Below, piece after piece: positions 39,323-51,844 of a stretch of 64,000 nt of DNA (position 1 is its first letter; each line of letters starts with the position of its first letter). The notes beneath the pieces were generated by a model, which ran no database searches, was not told the DNA's origin, and was given only the letters and a program-made list of their open reading frames with translations. The translations under genes were made by a program, and so were the position numbers. Origin of the DNA: an uncultured Chlorobiaceae bacterium (GTDB taxonomy: Bacteria > Bacteroidota > Chlorobiia > Chlorobiales > Chlorobiaceae); the NCBI GenBank assembly GCA_903895195.1, contig CAITSZ010000034.1, positions 47,104 through 111,103 of the forward strand, in the 5' to 3' direction.

Positions 39323-40093
39323 TTAGGTTGTCGGAGGATTTACAGGTGCCTTGATTTCAAAAAATGGCCTGAAGAGATCCATTGGTATTGGAAAAACTGT
39401 GGTAGAGTTATTCTCGGCTGCAATATCCTTCAATGTCTGCAGATACCGAAGCTGCAGCGCTGCCGGAGTACCTGAAATAATAGCCGCCGCATCTGCAAGG
39501 CGCTGGGCAGCCTGAAACTCCCCTTCCGCATTGATAATTGCCGACCGCCGCTCCCGCTCCGCCTCAGCCTGCTTTGCCATAGCCCGTCGCATAGTCTCCG
39601 GCAGATCAATCTCCTTCACTTCAACCTTGCTCACCTTGACTCCCCATGGCTCTGTATCCTTGTCCAGTATTGACTGGATACGGTCATTGATTTCATCCCG
39701 TTCAGCAAGCAGATTATCAAGTTCCCCCTGTCCGCAAACGCTTCTGAGCGTGGTCTGGGCTAGCTGAGAGGTTGCAAAATGAAAATCCGCAACATCAATA
39801 ATAGCCTTGATTGCATCAATCACACGAAAATATACGACCGCGCTGACCTTGACCGATACGTTATCACGCGTAATGATATCCTGTGGAGGCACATCAAGCG
39901 TTACTGTTCGAAGGTCAACCTTCACCATTTTATCAATTCCGGGAATCAGAATAATCAGCCCCGGCCCCTTGGCCCCGATAATACGCCCCAGTCGAAAAAC
40001 AACTCCCCGTTCATACTCCCTGAGAATCTTAACCGACGAAACCAGAAACAGAACCACAACAACCAATACAGTCATAAAATCAAATGCCATCAT
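39323..40093 (-). CDS. SPFH/Band-7 (stomatin/prohibitin-like) membrane protein
   Basis: [19 protein letters not shown] and an A/E-rich coiled coil [11 protein letters not shown]. Start set at MMAFDF, which has AAGGAGA 6 nt upstream; the longer track ORF is unlikely. Confidence 0.85.
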
Positions 40094-40256
40094 AATCGTC
40101 TCCTTTATGGTGAATTCACCTTTACGTCCACCTACAATATACTGCTCATTTACATTTATACGAGCTTTCAAGCATCCATCGTTTTTCTTTGAAACCAATA
40201 TTCAGTAAATAGACAAGCATCTCTTTCATCTAAAAGAACCAACAATAGAACCGTTC

Positions 40257-40502
40257 ATGGATACCCCGCAAAATACAGATAACGCTTTAGCTGAGCAGAT
40301 AGTCGAACGTTGGGCCAAGGGCAAACCGCTACTCGACACAACCGGCAAACCAAGCGGCTACTACCGCCTCACCAACTATCTTCGCGACTATATCGCCACC
40401 CATAAAACCCTTCCCACAGGCATCCACACCATGCCCGATGGACGCGACCGCAACAACAACATCGAGCCATCATTCCCGGTAAACTTCGACACAATTCCCT
40501 GA
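40257..40502 (+). CDS. Hypothetical protein, 81 aa
   Basis: ORF only. No recognisable motif. Confidence 0.35.
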   Translation: MDTPQNTDNALAEQIVERWAKGKPLLDTTGKPSGYYRLTNYLRDYIATHKTLPTGIHTMPDGRDRNNNIEPSFPVNFDTIP

Positions 40503-40589
40503 CCTCCCCCTTTTATTTAAAGTAATTATTTTGTAAATAACATAAACTGTAGGTTGGGGTGATTCCTGAACCCCAACAAAACAAAAAAA

Positions 40590-40643
40590 GAGTTGTGCTT
40601 TCGGACCGGAAGAAATTATCCTGAGCCCTTGAAAGCACAACTC
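40590..40643 (-). terminator. Long hairpin (perfect 13-bp stem GAGTTGTGCTTTC, 28-nt loop) followed by T7 on the minus strand
   Basis: Arms at 40590-40602 and 40631-40643 are exact reverse complements. The minus-strand read ends in TTTTTTT, about 115 nt downstream of the 40761 gene stop. Confidence 0.45.
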
Positions 40644-40760
40644 TCACACATCAACCATTTGTAAAAAAAATCTGCCGGCTCCGAAAGAATATTAACAAGC
40701 TACCAATCACAGCAACTCAACAACATACGTTACCGGCAGACAAAAGAGTTTGTAGAGGGA

Positions 40761-41369
40761 TTAATTAGCCGTTTTGATTACAACAGGAGCTGTTTCTCCT
40801 TCTGTCACAGTGACTGTGGTTTTCTCCTTAAGAGTCAGTTTTTTGCTCCAGATACCGATCTCGTAGGTACCCGCTGGGACATTAGGGATAGAGAACTTGC
40901 CATCATGATCGGTCAATGCTGCATATTGATTCTTCCCGACAATAACCCATGCGACGATGTCAGGATGGCAACTGCACAGCAATTGAACAACGCCGGGGTT
41001 TTCAAAAGTAATCGACTTCGATATACCGTTATTAAAGGGGTCTATCCTGAATTTCTTTGCTGCGCTTATTGAAAAAACACTATGATCGAGCTTGTCATAA
41101 CTTGTAAAGAGAATGGTAGACCCTACAGGAATAGCCGTCACTTTAGGTGTAAAATTCATTTTTCGCATATCAATAGATGCCTGCTGAGGAACAACAACGC
41201 CCTTAACATCTTTCAGGTAGACAACGGCATTTTCCTTGTACTTTGTCAAGTCGGTATCAATTGACCCTGTGATCGTTCCTCCACAGAATGCATTCGAGGT
41301 GATGAGTGCCAAACTTGCCGTTAAGAAACCGGTTTTGAGGAACTTGACAGTTCTGTTCATTTGTAACAT
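40761..41369 (-). CDS. Secreted two-domain protein: cupredoxin-like N-terminal part plus carboxypeptidase-regulatory-like beta-sandwich (paralog A)
   Basis: Signal-like N-terminus. His...Cys-x2-His spacing (DKLDHSV ... LLCSCHPD) resembles type-1 copper ligands. The C-terminal DGKFSIPNVPAGTYEIGIW is typical of CarboxypepD_reg-like folds. Confidence 0.5.
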   Translation of the reverse strand: MLQMNRTVKFLKTGFLTASLALITSNAFCGGTITGSIDTDLTKYKENAVVYLKDVKGVVVPQQASIDMRKMNFTPKVTAIPVGSTILFTSYDKLDHSVFSISAAKKFRIDPFNNGISKSITFENPGVVQLLCSCHPDIVAWVIVGKNQYAALTDHDGKFSIPNVPAGTYEIGIWSKKLTLKEKTTVTVTEGETAPVVIKTAN

Positions 41370-41517
41370 TATTTGCTCTTGAAGTTTTAATGTTGACGAT
41401 TACGTCTATGGTAATTCAGTAATCTCAAGCATCAGGTTGTATAAAAAGGGCCCGACTCTCTCTGTCACTCATGAAAAAGAGAGCGAGCCTTATTGTCCAT
41501 TCTTACCCGACTCTCAA

Positions 41518-42816
41518 TTACAGTGCAAATCCTATCGCTAGAACAACTGTATCCACTGCGGTATTACCTGCAACGGTTGCTGCTTTTGGGGATGCTTGAG
41601 TATAGGCGAATTCTTTTGTTGGATGAGTCCAGGTTAATGCAAGTGAAGCATTGGCCCTGAGCCATGCAGTAATGCCTGTTGCAATGCTTGGATTCAAGCC
41701 GTCCTGAAGTGATGTATAGTTAACGGTAGCTTTAAGCCATGGGTAAAAAAAGTACCCTGTCTGAACGACATAGTTGTTATAACCCAGATCCTTGTCCTTA
41801 CTGAACGCAGCACCACCAGTAAAATTCCCCTGGTTGCCGGTGATATCGACTTCAGAAATCAAGGTTTCCCCTTGATTATGAGGAGCAGTAAAAATTGTGC
41901 TTCCAGCTGCGGCGGTTGGAATGTCAGACCGTAAGCTGATAAGAGATCCGCCGATAGCAATATGATTGTCCAGCCCGACAAACTCATTGCCATAAATTCC
42001 ACCTGCACCACTCAATAGACCTGCACCACCGAACTTGTACTTGACCCTGACATATCTGATGTCATCAAAGTGATTAGCGTTAGTAGGTAATGATACTGCA
42101 GCAGTAGTCGTAGTAGCTTCAGTGAGTCCCAGTGTAACTTTGAACCTTTCCTTGGTGTATATAAATTCCGCACCTGTTCCAAGACCGTTAGGTGTAGGGT
42201 CTGACGGAAGTACTGCACTGCTGGTTGAGATGGCCTGTCCGAAATTCAAGTCACTGAAAAAATTTCCAACGCTTAAATTGATGCCTGGTTTAAAGGCCCA
42301 TACAAAGTGGCCTCTTGCAGCACCGGCAGTGGGATCATAAGTTCCTAAAACTGAGAGTTGCTCTCCTAACGTACCACCAAAGAAAAGTGAGGTACCTGTA
42401 CCCATTGGCCCAGCCCCATAATTAAATGTCTGTGGTGTTACAACCTTACCGGTCTTGTCCTGGACCTGATTGGCATAATTGACCAGAGTTCCTCTTACCC
42501 AGACGGATAAAGGACCAAAATTTGGTATCTCTGAAGGCCATGGAGCTGAAGGAAACACCCCTTTCCAGCCATCATTGCCTATCTTTAGCTGTTCCTGCTT
42601 GGTAAACTCTTCATCATCACCACCCGGCCAGCGGTAGCCGTTGTTTCTGAAGGCTTCACCAAAAGCGTTTCTTGTAGGAAAGCCTGAATGGCAGGTATAG
42701 CAGGATGTTTGATACTTTCTCGCAAAAGCAGGTATAGCTTGGCTGTCCTGACTCCAGAACAGAGCTGCCGGCACCATACAAAGCGAAGCGATGAACGCAA
42801 AATTCAATTTTCTCAT
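41518..42816 (-). CDS. Outer-membrane beta-barrel protein with a single N-terminal CxxCH heme c motif (Cyc2-like fused cytochrome-porin)
   Basis: Signal peptide MRKLNFAFIASLCMVPAALFWSQDSQA, then IPAFARKYQTSCYTCHSGFPTRNAFGEAFRNNGY. CYTCH at nt 42688-42702 was verified on the sequence. The rest is Cys-free, Gly/Thr/Asn-rich, with alternating hydrophobic residues suggesting beta strands. Confidence 0.6.
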   Translation of the reverse strand: MRKLNFAFIASLCMVPAALFWSQDSQAIPAFARKYQTSCYTCHSGFPTRNAFGEAFRNNGYRWPGGDDEEFTKQEQLKIGNDGWKGVFPSAPWPSEIPNFGPLSVWVRGTLVNYANQVQDKTGKVVTPQTFNYGAGPMGTGTSLFFGGTLGEQLSVLGTYDPTAGAARGHFVWAFKPGINLSVGNFFSDLNFGQAISTSSAVLPSDPTPNGLGTGAEFIYTKERFKVTLGLTEATTTTAAVSLPTNANHFDDIRYVRVKYKFGGAGLLSGAGGIYGNEFVGLDNHIAIGGSLISLRSDIPTAAAGSTIFTAPHNQGETLISEVDITGNQGNFTGGAAFSKDKDLGYNNYVVQTGYFFYPWLKATVNYTSLQDGLNPSIATGITAWLRANASLALTWTHPTKEFAYTQASPKAATVAGNTAVDTVVLAIGFAL

Positions 42817-43070
42817 GGGGGATATTTTTTGATTGGTTAAAAATATTATGAACAACAAAGGGAAAAAAATTAAGTCACGCCTGTTGATTAAAAATTAATT
42901 ATGAATGTGCCAAAAAATTCAAATGCGCTTTAATAAAAGCATGCACAGGCACATTACTCTTAATAACAATTGTTACATAATTTCTTTAAACAAGCATTAT
43001 TTGCCATGAATTAGTGATAGTTTCATGAAAAAGTCTGGTAATTTTGAGCATATAATCATCCTGACTTACA

Positions 43071-44006
43071 TCAATTCAACGTCCCAACGAGATCCTCTTC
43101 TTTGAGTGGCGCTTTCAGACAAAAAAATTGGTGAACTAATGAATCAATTTCGGTAGGCTTGAATTCAGTCGGTGTGATGCCTGTCAATTTTTTGAAAACT
43201 TTGGTAAAATAGGAGTGCTCTCCAAAGCCTAGCTCGAAAGCGATTTCCTTGATACTGAGATCCGATATAAGAATCAACCGCCTTGCTTCTACGATCAGGC
43301 GTTCATCGATGACCTCGGAAACACATTTACCAGTGTAATACTTGACTATCTCTCCCAGTTTCCTCGTTGATACATTCAACCTTAAGGCATAAAAGCTTAC
43401 CCTATGTTCAGTCTTGAACTTCTCTTCAAGAATGGCATTGAATCGGGCCCACATTGATTGAGTCTGGGTTAAATTTTTAGGATCTGACTGTGATTGAAAA
43501 AGTCGCAGTTCCTCAATAAATATGATGAAAACAGAAACCAGATGTTGGAGTTTTTCGTGAGAATAGGAGCTAGGGTGGTTGTATTCATAATGCATCAGTC
43601 CAATATAGCCTTCTATGATGGCAGCTTGTTCCTGATTCATCTGGATGACTGTATGAGCACTATGCTGGGAAAAAATCATGTGCGAAGCAAGCTGGAGAAA
43701 TTCTTTCTTGAACTTGATCCCGGTAGTCTTACAGTCAGGGGAAGGATAAAGCTTGTGTATACGGGAGGCAGGGATGCAAACAAGGGTATGCCTGGGAAAA
43801 TCGAGGCTCTCGCCGTCAAGTACGTGTACTGCAGATCCTTGCCGAACCCAAATTATTTCATGATATGCATGTCGATGCTCAGCCTTATTGGAGAGATTCA
43901 GATCAGCGACCGCTTTCTCGTCCATGTCGATAATCATGAACTGCTTTAAAAGCTCGTCTAAATCGCCATGCACCGGCGAGCCCTGGCTGTTAATAACAAA
44001 ATCCAT
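43071..44006 (-). CDS. AraC-family transcriptional regulator (cupin-like N-terminal domain)
   Basis: C-terminal dual HTH LSIKEIAFELGFGEHSYFTKVFKKLTGITPTEF. The N-terminal HRHAYHEIIWVRQG is cupin-like. Confidence 0.85.
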   Translation of the reverse strand: MDFVINSQGSPVHGDLDELLKQFMIIDMDEKAVADLNLSNKAEHRHAYHEIIWVRQGSAVHVLDGESLDFPRHTLVCIPASRIHKLYPSPDCKTTGIKFKKEFLQLASHMIFSQHSAHTVIQMNQEQAAIIEGYIGLMHYEYNHPSSYSHEKLQHLVSVFIIFIEELRLFQSQSDPKNLTQTQSMWARFNAILEEKFKTEHRVSFYALRLNVSTRKLGEIVKYYTGKCVSEVIDERLIVEARRLILISDLSIKEIAFELGFGEHSYFTKVFKKLTGITPTEFKPTEIDSLVHQFFCLKAPLKEEDLVGTLN

Positions 44007-44562
44007 AGTAAACGGTTAAAAGGGAACCCCAGTAATCGACGACCTCTGCTGAGTTGAGACTGGTGGTTTGAGCTGAGCTGATTGAAAACAACTCCATGAC
44101 AGCAACAGCTGAAATACTAATGATACTTATTCTCATAAGCTTAAAGGTAATGAGGCTGCTTATTAAGAGATTGAATACAGGTCACTAAGGATACCCATAA
44201 CGTGACTACCAATACAAGGCATTATTTATCATTTTTTGTTAAAGGATTACAACGTAAAAAAACAACGTTAGTACCGTTTTATCGCCTTTTTTAAATCTTT
44301 TTTTAAGAATTCTGTGCGATTGCTGTGCTATCTAAACTTGCCGTCGCCAGACTGGAGTTTTTCAGATAAAAAGGGCCGCCACCGAAGTGCTTTCAGAGTT
44401 CTATAAACTAAATGACTGAGTCGCGCCAGTATGCTCTCTACCCCGGAAGGTTACCAGCTGGGGTGATTTTGTACGGTTTGGGAAAAGCTGAGCTGCCTGG
44501 GGATTGCGACTGATAGAGAATGGGGGGTCATAACAGCGAAGGCCATAGTTTTGGCGAAAAAC

Positions 44563-44592
44563 AAAAACCCCGGTGATAGTCCCGGGGTTTTT
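44563..44592. terminator. Bidirectional intrinsic terminator AAAAACCCCGG-loop-CCGGGGTTTTT
   Basis: 6-bp GC stem (44568-44573 / 44582-44587) flanked by A5 and T5. It lies about 65 nt downstream of the 44657 minus-strand gene. Confidence 0.7.
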
Positions 44593-44656
44593 CTGTAACG
44601 CTTTTTTCGCTCAACTATTCCTGCTGGTTAAACGGAGAGTTCTTCACAGTACCATG

Positions 44657-45148
44657 TCAATGGAAATAATAGCGAACACCAATAGCCGCATTCCAATTGA
44701 GATTAATAGAAGGTTTCAGATCCAGCACAGGAGTGATTTCACCAAAAATATCTATCGGAGCTTCAGCGAGCAGATAGGTAACTCCTACAGGGACCCGAAC
44801 GCCTATATGAGATTTGTTATTGATATTTTTAACCCGTCCGCCAATACCGTAATACCATGGAAGAGATCCCTTTATCTCGGAAGAGCTTGTAGTTAAAGAG
44901 GATCCGTGAATCAGGTAGTCTGCATGCAACTGAAAAGGGCTATTGTCTGTAAGCGACCAGGCACAAGCTGCATCAAAAGCCGTGGTCTGATCAAGCCAGT
45001 ATTTAACACTCACGCCTGTCGGCTCGCCGACAATGGCGCCAAATCCAATACCATCTCGGCCGTAAGCTTGAGGTAAGGCAGCACTTACAAACAATGAGCC
45101 GGCAGCAATAATCGTTGCGAATCGGGCCAGAACATTCTTTTTGATCAT
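44657..45148 (-). CDS. Small outer-membrane beta-barrel protein
   Basis: 163 aa with a signal peptide, GIGFGAIVGEPTGVSVKYW, alternating-hydrophobic strands, and C-terminal GVRYYFH. Confidence 0.6.
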   Translation of the reverse strand: MIKKNVLARFATIIAAGSLFVSAALPQAYGRDGIGFGAIVGEPTGVSVKYWLDQTTAFDAACAWSLTDNSPFQLHADYLIHGSSLTTSSSEIKGSLPWYYGIGGRVKNINNKSHIGVRVPVGVTYLLAEAPIDIFGEITPVLDLKPSINLNWNAAIGVRYYFH

Positions 45149-45647
45149 ATGTTTATCCTCTTGTTATCGGTTGTTACAATAAGTAAAAAGGCTCGCTGTT
45201 AATTAAACAATAAGGTTGATTATAATCAACACTCTTATCACTGCTCCTGAAAAAAGCTTTTTTTTTTAACCGCATATATTGACTGCGAATGTTGAAAATC
45301 ATGGCTATTTCAGAAGTGATACGTGGCATTCCCACCTATTAACCTGAATATTTTGTAGTCGTGCCAAAAGGCACAGAATGACGGAGCGCAATTCAGCCTC
45401 ACCATACTTCGCTCGCACTTTGCTGTTAGGGTACAACAATAAGAAATCAGATAGAGCTTCTTGCCTAGTGTTATCGTCGCATAATCGTGAACCTTACCTG
45501 TAACTATAAGTATATAGAATAAATATGTCGGAATCAGCCTTGCAGACAGATCCATTATTCGCTATAGTGGGTGTGATAATAAAGAAAATGCGGTGTTAAA
45601 ATCGCGCGATTTATCACTTCGGAAATAACTAATCCACAAGGTCACAC

Positions 45648-45803
45648 ATGGCAAGCAAGAAGAAAGAGATTCCAGTGAAGTCACCAGAGCAGTTCGAAGA
45701 GGATATTAGACTTATGGCTTATTACCTATGGGAAGAAAAAGGCTCAACCGATGGCGGAGATGTCGAGGATTGGATTGCCGCCGAACTATATTTGAATAAC
45801 TGA
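45648..45803 (+). CDS. DUF2934-like small protein (51 aa; below the ORF-track cutoff)
   Basis: Hand translation: MASKKKEIPVKSPEQFEEDIRLMAYYLWEEKGSTDGGDVEDWIAAELYLNN. The I..AYY.WE..G...G...DW..AE pattern is the DUF2934 core. A terminator follows. Confidence 0.6.
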   Translation: MASKKKEIPVKSPEQFEEDIRLMAYYLWEEKGSTDGGDVEDWIAAELYLNN

Positions 45804-45831
45804 ATACCCTCTTCGCAATATCACATTTCAA

Positions 45832-45862
45832 AGGCCACTCCTCAGCGGGTGGCTTTTTTTTT
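45832..45862 (+). terminator. Intrinsic terminator after the DUF2934-like gene
   Basis: Short stem GCCAC...GTGGC followed by a T10 run, with further T runs after it. Confidence 0.55.
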
Positions 45863-45995
45863 TATTTTTTTTTGAAATTTTTAAGCTTTCATAAAGGCCC
45901 CTTTAAGGAAGTGTTGCGTAAAATAATCCCTGTAAATAGTGACTTGTCTGAAGAACACTACAGGTTTTAAAAACACTCAACAAAAGGAGCAGAAC

Positions 45996-46598
45996 ATGAT
46001 TAAAAGCACTACCCGTTTCATCAAAACCGCTGTGTTAATGGCTGGCTTAGGGTTCATCACCACAAATGCATTGTGCAACGGAACAATTACAGGCACAATT
46101 GATACCAACATGCCGAAGTACAAAGGTGATGCTGTTGTCTATCTGGTAGGGGTCAACGGACCGGCTGTGTGCGAAAATAAAACTATTGAGCAGCAGAGTC
46201 TTACTTTTTCGCCTAAAGTGACAACTGTACAGGCTGGATGTCCCATTGTATTCACAAACAACGATAAGCTCAACTCAAGCGTTACCTCATTCAGCCCGGC
46301 AAAAAAATTCAACGTGGAGAAATTGGATTCAGGTACATCCAGAAAGCTTACCTTTGAAAAGTCAGGTGTTGTTCAGTTGCTGAGCAAGCCCCATGCCGAA
46401 ATGACCGGCTTTGTAGTCGTCACCAACAATAAATATGCAGCAGTGACTGAACATGACGGCAAGTTCACTATTCCCAATGTTCCGGCCGGCACATACGAAA
46501 TCGGTGTATGGAGTGAAAAACTCAAGGCAGAGGGCAAAACAACTGTTACCGTAGCAGAGGGCGAAACGGCTCCTGTTGTCCTCAAAATGGCGATATAA
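45996..46598 (+). CDS. Secreted cupredoxin-like / CarboxypepD_reg-like protein (paralog B, ligand positions altered)
   Basis: Colinear with the 40761-41369 product; about half of positions are identical by eye, and the C-terminal blocks are nearly identical. Start set at MIKSTTRF, which has AAGGAG upstream. DKLNSSV and LLSKPHAEM replace the His and Cys positions of paralog A. Confidence 0.55.
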   Translation: MIKSTTRFIKTAVLMAGLGFITTNALCNGTITGTIDTNMPKYKGDAVVYLVGVNGPAVCENKTIEQQSLTFSPKVTTVQAGCPIVFTNNDKLNSSVTSFSPAKKFNVEKLDSGTSRKLTFEKSGVVQLLSKPHAEMTGFVVVTNNKYAAVTEHDGKFTIPNVPAGTYEIGVWSEKLKAEGKTTVTVAEGETAPVVLKMAI

Positions 46599-46675
46599 CT
46601 ACCCATGAGCCCATTTAAAAGCCTCCCCCTCGGACAGACTGAATAAACTTCGTATCCAAGGGGGGTGGAAAGGGA

Positions 46676-47218
46676 TTACGGCGAAGCTTTCTTTGCCAAC
46701 GTGCTCAACGTATCATTCAACGTATTACTTTTCTTTGCACTGCTACTCGAACTACCGAAATAGTAACTATAGATTGATGTTAATATTGATGAAAGAACAC
46801 CCAATATATACAAGATGATTTCTTTTACCGTAGTTCGTTGGTCTTGCTTTTCTTTCAAAGCGGTTCTTGCATACGCAACTTTATTTTTAAGAAATTGTTT
46901 GTCTTCTTTGAGACCTTCTTCTCGTGTTTTTTGACGAGTGGAATCGATTTTCGATAATTTGACATGTAACTTTTTCTCAGTTGCTTGACGAGTAGAATCA
47001 ACTATAGCAAGTTTTGATGCCTTTTCGTATATCTCTTCGGCAGAAGAAACTGCCTTGATTTCATCGCTGGGAGTAACCTTAAGCACAAAAATAAATACCC
47101 CAAACGTTATAAAGGTGAGGATAACCGTAACCAAAGCAAGAATTGGCGATATATTCTTACTAAGCCCACCATCAACTTGATCAGACGCCTGTTTTTTCTG
47201 TTCAGCATTATCAGACAT
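46676..47218 (-). CDS. Hypothetical membrane protein, 180 aa
   Basis: Strong SD (GAGGAGGG) upstream of the ATG. Two hydrophobic helices flank a charged coiled-coil-like region. No family recognised. Confidence 0.55.
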   Translation of the reverse strand: MSDNAEQKKQASDQVDGGLSKNISPILALVTVILTFITFGVFIFVLKVTPSDEIKAVSSAEEIYEKASKLAIVDSTRQATEKKLHVKLSKIDSTRQKTREEGLKEDKQFLKNKVAYARTALKEKQDQRTTVKEIILYILGVLSSILTSIYSYYFGSSSSSAKKSNTLNDTLSTLAKKASP

Positions 47219-47497
47219 ACAATACCCTCCTCTATGACGTTGGTTATGCTGTATGAACTTTTCATTCAGCTGTTTGACCGGTGATGAACGACTTAATAAA
47301 TTATCGAGAAAACGACAGTGTAATATATAAATTAAGTATAATTTTAAAGATAGATTGATCCAATATGTATTCCGGATTTGAGTTCAGTCAAAGCAAACCG
47401 TTATCATTTGAAATGTTGACCGCTGGAGTCATCAAACAAACAGCAGAAAAGCAGATCGCGGTGATACACATGAACTGAAATAAAAAAAGGAGTTATT

Positions 47498-48526
47498 ATG
47501 CAGCGTGAACCTGGAACAAATGAGCAAAAGCTTGCGGAAACAGCAAACGCTCTTGTCGCTCTCGATAAGGGTCTCCTGGCATTGGATGAGAGTAATCCAA
47601 CCTGTAACAAACGATTTGCCCGGTATGGAATTCCTCAAACAGAGGAGATGAGACGAAACTACCGTGAGCTGATTGTGACAACTGAAGGACTCGGAGAGTT
47701 CATTGGCGGCGCCATCCTCTACGATGAGACCATCCGCCAGAAGAAAAAAGACGGGACACCCCTTATTAAACTCATCATTGATGCCGGAATTATTCCCGGT
47801 ATTAAAGTGGACGGCGGGGTAAAGGAGATGGCTGGTCATCCCGGAGAGCAAATATGCGAAGGTCTTGACGGATTGAGAGCGCGTCTGGCCGAATACTCTC
47901 AGCTGGGGGCCCGTTTTGCCAAATGGCGCGCGGTCATTACCATTGGAAATGGTATTCCCAGCCAGGCTTGCATTGAAGCCAATGCCCACACGCTGGCCCG
48001 TTATGCCGCGTTTTGCCAGGAAGCTGGCATGGTGCCTGTTGTCGAACCGGAAGTGCTTATGGACGGTGATCATACACTGGAAAGGTGCCGCGAAGTGACT
48101 GAGGAAGTTCTTCACTCGGTTTTCGATCAGCTTTACCGCCAGCGAGTAACTCTTGAGGGCATGATTCTTAAAGCCAACATGGTTCTTCCGGGATTGAGCT
48201 GCCCTCAACAGGAAACAACTATTGAGATTGCAGAAGCTACCGTAAAATGTCTCATGCGGGTTGTCCCTGCAGCTGTTCCGGGAATCACGTTTTTGTCAGG
48301 AGGGCAATCTGCTGAATTGGCATCTGAGAGGTTAAATGCCATGAATATGAGATTCAAAGCACGATCACCCTGGGCATTGGCATTTTCATTTGCCCGTGCC
48401 ATCCAGCAACCTGCCTGGGAGATATGGCAAGGAAAAGAGGCTAATGTAGTTGCGGCACAGCAGGCCCTATTGCATCGAGCGAAATGCAACCGTGACGCAC
48501 GCCGTGGAGAATATCAGGGTGACTGA
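47498..48526 (+). CDS. Class I (Schiff-base) fructose-bisphosphate aldolase
   Basis: GLLALDESNPTCNKRF, ILYDETI, GIKVD and the LEGMILKANMV region match class I aldolases. AAAGGAG SD upstream. Confidence 0.85.
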   Translation: MQREPGTNEQKLAETANALVALDKGLLALDESNPTCNKRFARYGIPQTEEMRRNYRELIVTTEGLGEFIGGAILYDETIRQKKKDGTPLIKLIIDAGIIPGIKVDGGVKEMAGHPGEQICEGLDGLRARLAEYSQLGARFAKWRAVITIGNGIPSQACIEANAHTLARYAAFCQEAGMVPVVEPEVLMDGDHTLERCREVTEEVLHSVFDQLYRQRVTLEGMILKANMVLPGLSCPQQETTIEIAEATVKCLMRVVPAAVPGITFLSGGQSAELASERLNAMNMRFKARSPWALAFSFARAIQQPAWEIWQGKEANVVAAQQALLHRAKCNRDARRGEYQGD

Positions 48527-48867
48527 CTTCTGCCGGTTGAAAAGGAAGATGATTGTCATGGAGAGCGAAAATAAAGAGTTGTTGGCGGTTACTCATGAAA
48601 AGTTCTCAACATTCAAGGAGCTTAGCGAATAATCAGGGCCTGAGTTTGCCTGGGAAAAAATACTGGAAGGGTTTCCAGAGCAGCAACAGCATCGAATGAG
48701 CCCGTTTATTGAACATGCCACTCTGGCTGAGGGATTTAACAAAGCCATTCCTTTTATTAAAAGCATCGGCATGGAGATGGAGGTTGCTTGTGTAGGTTTA
48801 CATATGAGTTCCGTAATGTGTATTATACACCTTCAAGGAGCAAACCTTTTATGACATTGAAAAGCTA

Positions 48868-49575
48868 ATGGTACAGAGCAACAGCATTTATTTCTCTACT
48901 CCTGTTAACGCACTTGTTGAGGGAATATACATCCAGAAAATTCCATTTTCCGACATCAAGAAGCATGGGGATTTCGGGTTGGGCACCTTTGATAATCTGG
49001 ACGGCGAAATGGCTATGCTTGATGGTGCGATTTACCAGATCACGTCAAATGGTGTTGCAGCGAGAGTAAGCGAAGAGACATTAACACCGTTTACCTGCGT
49101 TACCTTTTACAAGCCGGTGAGCCACGACCAACTTCAGGAAGAGTGCTCTTATAAGGTTTTTCTTGACTGGTTGTTCAGTCTTCTTCCTTCGCCCAACATT
49201 TTTTATGCTATTAGGATAGAAGGTTCTTTTGCCGAAATCAAAGTCCGTTCGGTTCCTCGACAGGAGAATTATCGCCCGTTAGCAGAAGTGGCAAAAGATC
49301 AGCCGGTATTTAATTATAAAGGGATAGAGGGGACTCTGGTAGGATTTTATACACCTGCATTCATGGGATCAGTAAGTGTTCCCGGCATGCACCTTCATTT
49401 TCTTTCGGCAGACCGAACTCTTGGAGGGCACTTGCTGGAATGCAGACCATCTGATATCAGGGCGGGCATACAGTTTATCACTACCCTTGAATTGGGACTG
49501 CCAATGAGCTTTGATTATCTGACCTGTGATTTTCAACGCGATGTGCAGCAGGATTTGGAGAGCGCTGAACGGTAA
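48868..49575 (+). CDS. budA: Alpha-acetolactate decarboxylase
   Basis: HGDFGLGTFDNLDGEMAMLDGAIYQ and GFYTPAFMGSVSVPGMHLHFLS are AlsD/BudA hallmarks. Confidence 0.85.
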   Translation: MVQSNSIYFSTPVNALVEGIYIQKIPFSDIKKHGDFGLGTFDNLDGEMAMLDGAIYQITSNGVAARVSEETLTPFTCVTFYKPVSHDQLQEECSYKVFLDWLFSLLPSPNIFYAIRIEGSFAEIKVRSVPRQENYRPLAEVAKDQPVFNYKGIEGTLVGFYTPAFMGSVSVPGMHLHFLSADRTLGGHLLECRPSDIRAGIQFITTLELGLPMSFDYLTCDFQRDVQQDLESAER

Positions 49576-49616
49576 ACGTGGATAGTTTAGGGGCTGCTTC
49601 GATTACATTCCTGACG

Positions 49617-49913
49617 TTATGGCTCAAACCGCAAATAAATGCGCTCCTTTTCCTTTTGCTTGTCAATGACTACTTTATTGGCGTATTGCCGAATAAGTGC
49701 TACCGAAAGACTGGTAATGGCAACGGCAAGAAAGCCCGCAGTCACAATCCCTTCTGCCTCATGCTGTGTTCCATGAACCTCAGCAACCAGCATAAGGGGA
49801 TAAACGATAAAGACAAGAGCAAGCACAGCATGCTGAAACGCCAGAAAAAACAGGGTAGAAAAGGGTGGCAGATCATCGACGCCATAAATGATATTGGAGG
49901 GCTTCTGATTCAT
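49617..49913 (-). pseudogene. Truncated N-terminal fragment of an NCS2 (xanthine/uracil-type) permease
   Basis: IIYGVDDLPPFSTLFFLAFQHAVLALVFIVYPLML matches the NCS2 N-terminus (YG.DD.PP....LL..QH.LAM). The ORF is only 98 aa versus more than 400 expected, and its tail is unrelated. Confidence 0.5.
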
Positions 49914-49927
49914 GGGAATAATGCTTA

Positions 49928-50359
49928 TTAGAGCCTGCCCGTTGACGATGAACGATTGACAACCAATCTCAGGACGTTTTGATCATTTCGCCTCCGATAA
50001 CTGACGCTGTCGGAAAATTTGCGGATAAAATAGCCACCAAGCCCCCCGATTTCACGGTCAGCAATATCAAGAGAGGTATCAGGGTCGGGAAGCGATAATA
50101 CATTAAAAGGGCTTCCTGAATCCAAAATTTCAACGACAAGCGCATCGTCAACCCTGTCACACAAAACTTCAATCCTCCCCTTCCGGTCAGGAGAGGAATA
50201 GTTGCAGACATTGACGAAAGCCTCTTCAACGGCGATCAGCAGTCCGAACTTTTTTTTCGAATCAAGTCCGAATTGATCAGCACATCCCTCAATGAATTCA
50301 GTGATTTCCGGCAGCTTCTCAACATTGGCTGCCACTATTTTATTGCATGTGTCCGTCAT
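49928..50359 (-). CDS. RsbW/SpoIIAB-type anti-sigma regulatory factor (GHKL Ser/Thr kinase)
   Basis: 143 aa. LLIAVEEAFVNVCNY (N-box), ILDSGSPFN (G1) and GGLGGYFIRKFSD (G2). Confidence 0.85.
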   Translation of the reverse strand: MTDTCNKIVAANVEKLPEITEFIEGCADQFGLDSKKKFGLLIAVEEAFVNVCNYSSPDRKGRIEVLCDRVDDALVVEILDSGSPFNVLSLPDPDTSLDIADREIGGLGGYFIRKFSDSVSYRRRNDQNVLRLVVNRSSSTGRL

Positions 50360-50698
50360 TTAACCAAGCGAAGCACTCAATGCGCTTGCCACCGAGTCGT
50401 GCGTTGGAAAAAGGGTGCAGAAACCAGAAATCTCGAATACATCTTTGACCACTCCCGTGATATTTGCAAGAAGGAGTTTTCCGTTTACAGCTTTGACCCT
50501 TTTAGCTGTAGCAAGGAGAACACGCAGCCCGGCACTGCTGATATAGTCGACCTGTTCAAAGTCAACGATAAAGCTTATCTCTCCTTCAGCAATCAGCTCG
50601 CTGAACTTCTTTTCATATTCCGGTGCAGTTAGGGCATCCATCTTTCCGGTTATTGTCACTATAAGGGCTGTTGTTTCTTTACTGGTCTGAATAGGCAT
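50360..50698 (-). CDS. STAS-domain anti-sigma-factor antagonist (RsbV/SpoIIAA-like)
   Basis: 112 aa. IVDFEQVDYISSAGLRVLL carries the conserved phosphorylatable Ser loop. It ends directly adjacent to the RsbW-like start. Confidence 0.85.
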   Translation of the reverse strand: MPIQTSKETTALIVTITGKMDALTAPEYEKKFSELIAEGEISFIVDFEQVDYISSAGLRVLLATAKRVKAVNGKLLLANITGVVKDVFEISGFCTLFPTHDSVASALSASLG

Positions 50699-50752
50699 GT
50701 TCTCTTTCCTTTTTAATAGTTGCGTAAATATGACCCTCTTAATATGACATCA

Positions 50753-51844
50753 CTACTGTTTTTTCAAAATCAGAGTTACCCTGTTTTTATTATTCAGTCG
50801 CTGGTAATCGATGCTCTCCGTTACGCTCTGGATAAGGGTCAATCCCAACTCGTCAGATAATAGATTTTTGTCAAGCACATTCATTGCCTCACCGGTGCTT
50901 TCAAAGACAACTTCCAGACTCTCCTTTTTTTCTGAATAGGCAAGATTGATATCAAGGAGTGCCTTAGAGAGAAAAGGATTGTATATCTGCAGCATCTCTT
51001 CAACAATCAGGAGAAGATTGTATCTCTGCTTCACAGCCAGAATCTGTTTATCGCAAAAGGTCTCTATTTCAGCATTCATTGCATACAAATCATAGTCAGG
51101 AGAAGCGATATGATAGGTAAAACTTCTTACCCTGTTTATGAATGTCTTGGTCTTTTCTTTTTGGGGATGAACAAAAATCTGCTCAGGAGTACCTTCTTCG
51201 TAGATAATACCGTCATCCATATAGAGCACCCGATTTGAAACGTCCCTGGCAAAATCCATTTCATGGGTGACAATTGCCATGGTCATGCCGGCTTTAGCCA
51301 ATCGGCGGATAACCGACAAAACTTCGCTTACCATGGTGGGATCAAGCGCCGAAGTCGGCTCGTCAAAAAGAATAATTTTAGGATCCATAGCCATGCAGCG
51401 GGCGATGGCAACGCGTTGTTTCTGACCGCCGGAAAGTTCGTCAGGGTAACTTTCGGCCTTTTCAGCAAGACCTACAAGTTTAAGAAGGTCAACGGCTTTA
51501 CTCCCTGCATCCTCCTTACTCATCCCTAAAAGCTTAATCGGCCCGAGAGTCAGATTATCCATCACAGAGAGATGAGAAAAAAGATTAAACGATTGAAAAA
51601 CCATGTTCATCTTCTGCCGGACTTTTGGTACGTCGGCTTTTGGATCCAGGATGTCAACTCCATCAATCCGGATTGAACCGCCACTTGGTCGATCAAGCAG
51701 GTTGATACAGCGCAAAAAAGTGCTTTTACCAGTTCCGGAAGGTCCAATAATTGAAATAACTTCTCCTGCCTTTATTTCAACAGTGATATCTTTCAGCACT
51801 TCCAGATTCCCGAAACTCTTGGAAAGATGATCTATCTTTATCAT
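50753..51844 (-). CDS. Polar-amino-acid ABC transporter ATPase with ~115-aa C-terminal RsbW-like extension
   Basis: Walker [10 protein letters not shown], signature LSGGQKQR, Walker [12 protein letters not shown] and H-loop VTHEM within residues 1-245. Residues ~250-363 align by eye with the adjacent RsbW-like protein (see findings). Confidence 0.85.

Follow-up and report, generated by a model that had tools for sequence, protein, structure and literature searches.

A Cyc2-type cytochrome-porin gene and its blue-copper protein neighbour in an uncultured Chlorobiaceae bacterium

The cytochrome-porin gene and its heme-binding signature

The gene cyc2 is the main genomic marker for iron oxidation and extracellular electron uptake, including claims of photoferrotrophy in early-Earth-analogue lakes. 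Here we describe a Cyc2-type gene in a 64-kb stretch of DNA from an uncultured Chlorobiaceae bacterium (contig CAITSZ010000034.1), referred to below as the window. The gene lies at 41518..42816 (-) and encodes a fused monoheme cytochrome-porin; a small copper-protein gene follows it and a gene for an AraC-family regulator precedes it. In the open reading frame (ORF) call, the frame that begins at a TTG codon spans 41518-42858 (-) and 446 amino acids (aa), and an ATG at 42816 gives a product of 432 aa, with the stop codon at 41518-41520. The 432-aa product is called identically on 171 public contigs, and homologues begin with MRK or MKK at the position equivalent to this ATG. The N-terminus reads MRKLNFAFIASLCMVPAALFWSQDSQA for the signal peptide, followed by IPAFARKYQTSCYTCHSGFPTRNAFGEAFRNNGYRWPGG for the start of the mature protein, as originally described. 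By inspection of the sequence, the signal peptide covers residues 1-27 (42736..42816 (-)) and consists of MRK, a hydrophobic core and a cleavage site between SQA and IP.

The protein contains only three Cys residues: C13 belongs to the signal peptide, and the CxxCH motif (C39-Y-T-C-H43; 42688-42702 (-)) supplies C39 and C42. A six-frame scan of both strands of the window revealed that this is the only CxxCH among all ORFs of at least 80 aa. The remainder of the protein, residues 71-432, has no Cys and is rich in Gly (12.4%), Thr (10.8%), Ala (10.2%) and Asn (6.1%). The sole heme motif, the absence of other Cys outside the signal peptide and the Gly/Asn/Thr-rich character of the C-terminal part had all been noted originally, and each was confirmed here. 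Furthermore, the ratio of nonsynonymous to synonymous substitution rates (dN/dS) against four orthologues was 0.10-0.20, which indicates that the gene is maintained by purifying selection.

We next compared the N-terminal region with the published definition of Cyc2 (Keffer et al. 2021, PMC8406198). There, Cyc2 is defined by a signal peptide, one CXXCH only and, upstream of this CXXCH, the motif AXPXFAR[Q/K][T/Y], said to be unique to Cyc2. Sequences shorter than 365 aa are filtered out, the porin has 16 strands, and a PXL lies four residues after the CXXCH; this PXL is a consensus feature in that work and not a screening criterion. The corresponding region of the window protein, delimited by alignment and by the published motif, is a heme-binding signature at residues 27-49 (42670..42738 (-)) that reads A-I-P-A-F-A-R-K-Y-QTS-C-Y-T-C-H-SGF-P-T-R. 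We found that it carries A27-I-P-A-F-A-R-K-Y35 upstream of a single CXXCH near the N-terminus, behind a signal peptide that was recognised by inspection (MRK, a hydrophobic stretch and the SQA/IP site), and that the full product of 432 aa exceeds the length filter. The only departure from the published motif is at the PXL position, where Pro47 is in place and the third residue is Arg49 and not Leu. On these published sequence criteria the window protein is placed in the Cyc2 superfamily, an assignment made by motif and criteria.

The signature is strongly conserved. In 39 aligned Chlorobiaceae homologues, A27-x-P-x-F-A-R-K-Y35, C39xxCH43 and P47 were invariant or nearly so: R33, K34 and Y35 did not vary at all, and P29, F31 and A32 were at least 90% conserved. 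All full-length homologues examined have exactly one CxxCH, always in the same near-invariant context, indicating that the motif is not a chance occurrence. The conserved block in full-length relatives can be written as A[IV]PAFARKY[QG]TSCYTCHSGFPxRNAFGEAF[RK]NNGYRWPGG, and across the full-length homologues checked the heme motif with about 40 flanking residues was the most conserved part of the protein.

The C-terminal part, of about 330 residues, is predicted to form a porin-like beta barrel (residues about 103-432; 41521..42510 (-)), as judged from AlphaFold2, DSSP and Foldseek. In the AlphaFold2 model, built from the 39-sequence alignment, the predicted template-modelling score (pTM) was 0.70 and strands extended across residues 103-431. 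Block means of the predicted local distance difference test (pLDDT) were mostly 62-92 within the barrel, with three blocks at 43-58. DSSP counted 16-18 strands. Foldseek searches against the PDB returned the 16-stranded general porins OmpU, OmpC, OmpF and Omp32 as best matches, with E values of about 4e-10 and target-normalised TM scores of about 0.55. Thus the model agrees with the published description of a C-terminal barrel of about 16 strands, and the structural check that had been suggested for the original prediction gave a confident barrel. Together with the signal peptide and the single N-terminal heme-c motif, the barrel completes the Cyc2-like architecture that had been proposed for this protein.

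Sequence searches placed the protein in a large Cyc2-type family. Scans of the window protein against Pfam and NCBIfam gave no match, and searches of PDB sequences with the single protein and with the family profile gave no meaningful match and no solved Cyc2 structure. A search of 5.8 billion proteins yielded 230 relatives, and the named ones among the 120 matches listed were all from Chlorobiaceae metagenome-assembled genomes (MAGs). With a profile, 1.84 billion cluster representatives yielded 2381 relatives at E<=1e-3, of which 154 reached E<=1e-30; among the matches listed, nearly all full-length representatives of this wider family read AIPAFARKYxTSCxTCHxxFPKLNxFGEAFRxNGY, with PKL intact. 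The Chlorobia clade aligned with 52 distant members over the full length in hhalign (probability 100%, E 1.6e-69). A profile search with these 52 distant representatives led to MAG proteins from Ignavibacteria, Bacteroidota, Calditrichota, Zixibacteria, Acidobacteriota and Gammaproteobacteria among the matches listed, and no name from Gallionellaceae, Zetaproteobacteria or Acidithiobacillus stood among the 120 listed. For 20 distant representatives, cluster look-ups gave no entry with a name other than 'hypothetical protein', and a tblastn search against plasmids gave no match.

A copper-protein neighbour and a Rieske/cytochrome b/octaheme cluster

Located 148 bp downstream of the cytochrome-porin gene, on the same strand, is a gene at 40761..41369 (-) for a 202-aa protein in which an amicyanin-like blue-copper domain is fused to a CarboxypepD_reg Ig-like domain. 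We named this family cupCPD and the gene copy A, on the basis of Pfam matches, alignment and a structural model. Its Pfam matches were weak for plastocyanin/azurin and clear for CarboxypepD_reg. The AlphaFold model had a pLDDT of 89, and Foldseek matched its N-terminal domain to pseudoazurin, amicyanin, plastocyanin and a Nitrosopumilus cupredoxin. The family comprises 96 clusters, mostly from Chlorobiaceae, with a type-1 copper set formed by an upstream His and then a compact C-x2-H-x2-M loop as in amicyanin. Copy A has H95, C132 and H135 as ligands and Ile138 in place of the axial Met, which is kept in P0425, a homologue 77% identical to it. Replacement of Met by Ile at the axial site of type-1 copper usually keeps the copper and raises the potential.

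A second member, copy B, lies at 45996..46598 (+), with its start taken from the gene call. The ORF, Pfam and ligand alignment indicate a degenerate copy in which Ser has replaced two ligands, the first His and the Cys, and because both are lost copy B is unlikely to bind type-1 copper. A ligand-less cupCPD sub-family also occurs elsewhere in Chlorobiaceae (for example P0430-P0441).

The adjacency of cupCPD and Cyc2-like genes is not confined to the window. At L053/L058, the closest orthologous locus, two intact tandem cupCPD copies come right after the Cyc2-like gene, and at L033 the order is monoheme cytochrome, cupCPD and a second Cyc2-like gene. An Acidobacteria MAG (L052:5054-12122; JACPPM010000204.1) encodes, in order, a PAS/LuxR regulator, a Cyc2-like protein with PKL, a cupCPD protein that keeps all four copper ligands, an Fe-S flavoprotein, a Rieske protein, a cytochrome b and a cytochrome b C-terminal subunit. 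The commonest cupCPD member, P0447, is encoded in L060 directly after the monoheme cytochrome that ends the gene cluster described below. In a limited literature search we found no paper on a pairing of Cyc2 with a cupredoxin in Chlorobia, which is absence of evidence only.

To place the gene among its paralogues, genomes were scanned with clade-specific peptide patterns, one genome per species, and 48 loci were obtained. Nearly all of them are titled as Chlorobiaceae, Chlorobiales, Chlorobium or Chlorobaculum MAGs, which is because the patterns are clade-specific, and they take in MAGs from Boreal Shield lakes (L227, L304) and the Trout Bog populations GSB_A and GSB_B. Homologues in MAGs from published Chlorobium studies were 46-51% identical to the window protein. 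We found that an octaheme cytochrome (about 873 aa, eight CxxCH) is encoded about 3 kb downstream of the Cyc2-like gene in 32 of the 48 loci, most of the others being contigs too short to show it, and that a small monoheme cytochrome usually comes next after the octaheme gene. At L031, for example, genes for ResB and CcsA, which serve cytochrome c maturation, lie divergently upstream, and the Cyc2-like gene is followed by those for a Rieske protein, a 2x[4Fe-4S] ferredoxin, cytochrome b, a split cytochrome b C-terminal subunit and the octaheme cytochrome.

This larger cluster is apparently undescribed and is shared in part (Cyc2-like protein, cupredoxin, Rieske protein and cytochrome b) with the Acidobacteria MAG; a limited literature search found no description of a Cyc2/Rieske/cytochrome b/octaheme/cupredoxin cluster, again absence of evidence only. 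Annotated examples are L031:3003-13173, L060:1-7195 and L055:6101-15462. The cluster varies between loci, with one to three tandem Cyc2-like copies and sometimes DUF3570 barrels or a second Cyc2-like gene at its end.

No Rieske protein, cytochrome b or 8-heme cytochrome is encoded in the window; of the cluster partners, the copper protein alone still accompanies this copy. In a neighbour-joining tree the window protein falls in its own sub-clade, whose members are 71-87% identical to it, and this sub-clade is nested among cluster-linked copies. One member, in L055, is still at the cluster, as the first of three tandem Cyc2-like genes before the Rieske cluster; the other members are dispersed. 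Because of this nesting, and because the L055 member has stayed in place, the tree identifies the window gene as a duplicated copy that left the cluster and is now a dispersed paralogue.

That lake Chlorobium carries multiple Cyc2 copies is already known; the pairing with a small blue-copper protein is the new detail. Published work reported cyc2 homologues in 40% of Chlorobium metagenomic operational taxonomic units (mOTUs) and, for each of the Trout Bog Chlorobium populations, three Cyc2 homologues, among them one with very high transcription. The window protein belongs to the same bacterial family and the same superfamily as the cyc2 products of photoferrotrophic and lake Chlorobium (Chl. 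ferrooxidans, phaeoferrooxidans, N1 and luteolum; Tsuji 2020, Garcia 2021, Olmsted/He), but differs from them in forming its own sub-clade. Published Chlorobia cyc2 is described as always adjoining a gene for a c5-family cytochrome (Tsuji et al. 2020). We found no such cytochrome beside the Cyc2-like gene among the ORFs of at least 80 aa in the window and saw none at any of the 48 loci. These loci include L028, L031 and L040, from the Tsuji MAGs L227-S-6D, L227-2013-56 and L304-S-6D, genomes in which the c5 gene was reported to lie directly upstream of cyc2; there too, no small cytochrome was seen next to the Cyc2-like gene. Since the c5 neighbour is absent at loci from the same MAGs, the published cyc2 marker may be a further paralogue elsewhere in those genomes.

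Two candidates for the published arrangement were considered and rejected. The gene upstream of P0297, a 467-aa Chlorobium paralogue, encodes a membrane protein without CxxCH, and the monoheme cytochrome that ends the main cluster of 'Ca. Chl. canadense' reads YCGVCH and is not the CCxCH c5 cytochrome of Tsuji. Further divergent Cyc2-like lineages occur in Chlorobium (P0297, at L057:5001-6404, P0149, P0148 and P0152), and at least four genes of the family (07530, 02455, 09355 and 08770) occur together in one MAG, whose locus tags have the prefix WCL43. Lake Chlorobium thus has several distinct Cyc2-type paralogues in different genetic settings, and a bare statement that cyc2 is present therefore does not tell whether an electron-transfer chain is attached to it, or which one.

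Candidate function and its alternatives

On top of the observed architecture, conserved motif, barrel fold, purifying selection and recurrent gene linkage, we propose that the window protein probably serves as a Cyc2-type electron conduit in the outer membrane that draws on Fe(II) or reduced organic matter, as an accessory, dispersed copy. By analogy with characterised Cyc2 proteins, the heme domain would sit in or under the pore. A soluble extracellular reductant, either Fe(II) or reduced humic or dissolved organic matter, would enter the pore and give electrons to a heme attached at the CxxCH. The heme would pass them to a periplasmic carrier, the likeliest being the amicyanin-like blue-copper protein at 40761-41369, and the copper protein would in turn deliver them to cytochromes that re-reduce the green-sulfur-bacterial reaction centre. 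We propose the copper protein as the periplasmic acceptor because its adjacency to Cyc2-like genes recurs across contexts and phyla. The copper-protein pairing and the Rieske/cytochrome b/octaheme cluster offer testable candidates for the periplasmic steps between Cyc2 and the reaction centre.

The nearest functional analogy would be the rus operon of A. ferrooxidans, in which Cyc2 passes electrons to the blue-copper protein rusticyanin (He et al. 2017). As in that operon, an outer-membrane Cyc2-type cytochrome-porin is encoded together with a periplasmic type-1 copper protein. Unlike rusticyanin, the copper protein of the window is amicyanin-like, fused to CarboxypepD_reg and changed from Met to Ile at the axial position, and unlike the rus operon the locus has no cyc1 or cox genes and its setting is neutral-pH and anoxic. 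Among tested proteins, Cyc2PV-1 of Mariprofundus ferrooxydans ('Cluster 1', McAllister 2020 / Keffer 2021) resembles the window protein: both have a signal peptide, one CXXCH near the mature N-terminus and AxPxFAR[Q/K][T/Y], both are about 430 aa long, and in both the C-terminal part is a porin-like barrel with a prediction of 16 strands. The window protein differs in having PxR for PxL, in a host that is an anoxygenic phototroph and in the lack of Cyc1 or ACIII-type partners nearby.

The MtrCAB, MtoAB and PioAB systems are alike in outline, since there too a beta barrel is the route by which electrons cross the outer membrane, but they consist of separate proteins in which a 26-strand barrel sheathes a decaheme cytochrome. 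In the window protein a single heme motif is fused to a barrel that spans about 330 residues with about 16 strands, and the window lacks multiheme genes; the separate 26-strand porin and periplasmic decaheme cytochrome of an MtrAB/PioAB-type complex were not found. The general porins OmpF, OmpC, OmpU and Omp32 are the best structural matches to residues about 103-432, but they share only about 10% sequence identity with the window protein and have no N-terminal cytochrome domain, and the window protein has no Pfam porin match.

A narrower reading would make the protein a specific Fe(II) oxidase of photoferrotrophy and its gene the entry point for growth by light-driven Fe(II) oxidation. The Cluster 1 Cyc2 of Mariprofundus PV-1 oxidises Fe(II) (Keffer et al. 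2021, PMC8406198), cyc2 is found in all cultured photoferrotrophic Chlorobium, and the family signature is present in the window protein. Yet the gene is a dispersed extra copy without the published c5-family cytochrome arrangement, nothing related to iron was found in the window, and work on the Trout Bog Chlorobium favours reduced dissolved organic matter as the donor. In addition, 'Ca. Chl. canadense' bears cyc2, but attempts to obtain Fe(II) oxidation from it in culture failed (Tsuji et al. 2020). We consider a dedicated role in Fe(II) oxidation possible but unlikely. The original prediction had been cautious about the substrate, and rightly so.

Electrons might also travel the other way, being exported to extracellular acceptors in the dark, or the protein might report on periplasmic or extracellular redox state. 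Keffer et al. 2021 (PMC8406198) allow for other Cyc2 functions, published work discusses how lake Chlorobium metabolises in the dark, and regulators flank the genes, an AraC-family protein here and a 7TMR-DISM kinase with response regulators in L053. Export or sensing nevertheless seems improbable to us: the conserved partners (Rieske/cytochrome b, multiheme cytochromes and the blue-copper protein) resemble an energy-conserving electron-transfer chain, and no sensor output domain is fused to the window protein. Finally, heme binding at the CxxCH might have been lost, which would leave a plain diffusion porin or a paralogue in decay, as might be argued from the lack of a Pfam or NCBIfam match, the resemblance of the barrel to general porins, the altered PxL consensus and the loss of ligands in the neighbouring copper proteins. 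The conservation pattern makes a heme-less ordinary porin very unlikely, because the heme motif and its roughly 40 flanking residues are the most conserved part, dN/dS is 0.1-0.2 and the identical protein recurs across the 171 contigs.

Several observations weigh against our preferred reading of the protein as an electron conduit. Homology to a tested Cyc2 is supported by the published motif rather than by alignment, and the PxR that replaces PxL after the heme motif is a fixed feature, Arg49 being invariant in the 39 aligned Chlorobia homologues. In the model, the strand count is 16-18 and not cleanly 16, and the N-terminal 100 residues (signal peptide and heme domain, modelled without heme) have pLDDT values below 50; we therefore infer the position of the heme domain in the pore. 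The proposed partner has Ile instead of Met at its axial site in copy A and has lost two ligands in copy B, and an 82%-identical orthologue in L056 stands without a cupCPD neighbour. Among the window ORFs there is none for a cytochrome or another carrier by which the module could be connected to the reaction centre, and the AraC gene is not adjacent to the orthologue in L053. The negative culture result for 'Ca. Chl. canadense' counts here as well.

The near-identical genomic block and the upstream regulator

The cytochrome-porin gene lies within a block that is nearly identical to part of another contig, L002, from the same lake series. Sliding identity, GC content and BLAST delimited the block to 39600..51478: the window and L002 are 99.5-100% identical from about 39.6 kb to at least 51.5 kb, a length of at least 12 kb that is a lower bound, the right-hand end lying beyond the aligned part. 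The adjacent genes for propionyl-CoA carboxylase, methylmalonyl-CoA mutase, MeaB and Usp (31.5-39.5 kb) are 75-91% identical to L002. Because the block is near-identical while these flanking core genes have diverged, the comparison suggests that it was recently recombined or transferred between diverged Chlorobium populations. Alternatively, the near-identity may stem from chimeric metagenome assembly.

The low-GC core of the block, 40200-47300, has 42.4% GC against 47.1% for the rest of the window and is the second lowest of 114 sliding 7.1-kb windows. The GC content of the cytochrome-porin gene itself is 46.2%, near the window average. An AT-richer block had been pointed out originally as a sign of acquisition; the block does exist, but the gene itself does not share its composition, and the idea that the locus was acquired is supported mainly by the near-identity of the block between divergent contigs, GC alone not being its main support.

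Taken together with the gene pairing, the block raises the idea that the Cyc2-like and copper-protein genes form a self-contained mobile uptake module, split from the larger cluster and swapped between co-occurring Chlorobium populations by recombination. We put this joint reading forward tentatively and rate it as rather unlikely. If true, the two-protein module would parallel the step from Cyc2 to rusticyanin in a neutral-pH anoxygenic phototroph, and a copper protein feeding the type-I reaction centre of green sulfur bacteria would be new.

The AraC-family regulator, with a cupin-type ligand domain and HTH_18 (Pfam, NCBIfam), is encoded at 43071..44006 (-), on the same strand as the cytochrome-porin gene and 254 bp upstream of it, where it had been predicted. 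It may control the cytochrome-porin gene. In L053, the genes immediately upstream of the orthologue are instead those for the divergent 7TMR-DISM histidine kinase and response regulators. Since the AraC link is not conserved, conditional expression of the gene, which had been suggested from this neighbour, is something that we infer. In the intergenic region between the two genes, a palindrome, TAACAATTGTTA, at 42964..42975 (no strand assigned) is a candidate operator; it occurs once in the window and is also present upstream of the orthologues in L053 and L006. One match was also obtained in 20 of 100 shuffles, and the palindrome is a weak candidate for an operator. A scan for sigma-70 promoters and terminators round the locus gave hits at background level.

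Near the AraC gene, a strain-variable indel of 1.33 kb was seen at 44537-44545, where the insertion is present in L001:6943-8271 and a 9-bp overlap flanks it. The indel carries a 328-aa ORF with internal 27-nt repeats, for which no Pfam or NCBIfam match was found. An insertion sequence was considered and rejected, as the indel had no match to a transposase family and no terminal inverted repeats. Also within the low-GC block, 44657-45148 (-) encodes a secreted protein of 163 aa with a weak match to DUF3996 (E 0.004), which may be a small outer-membrane barrel.

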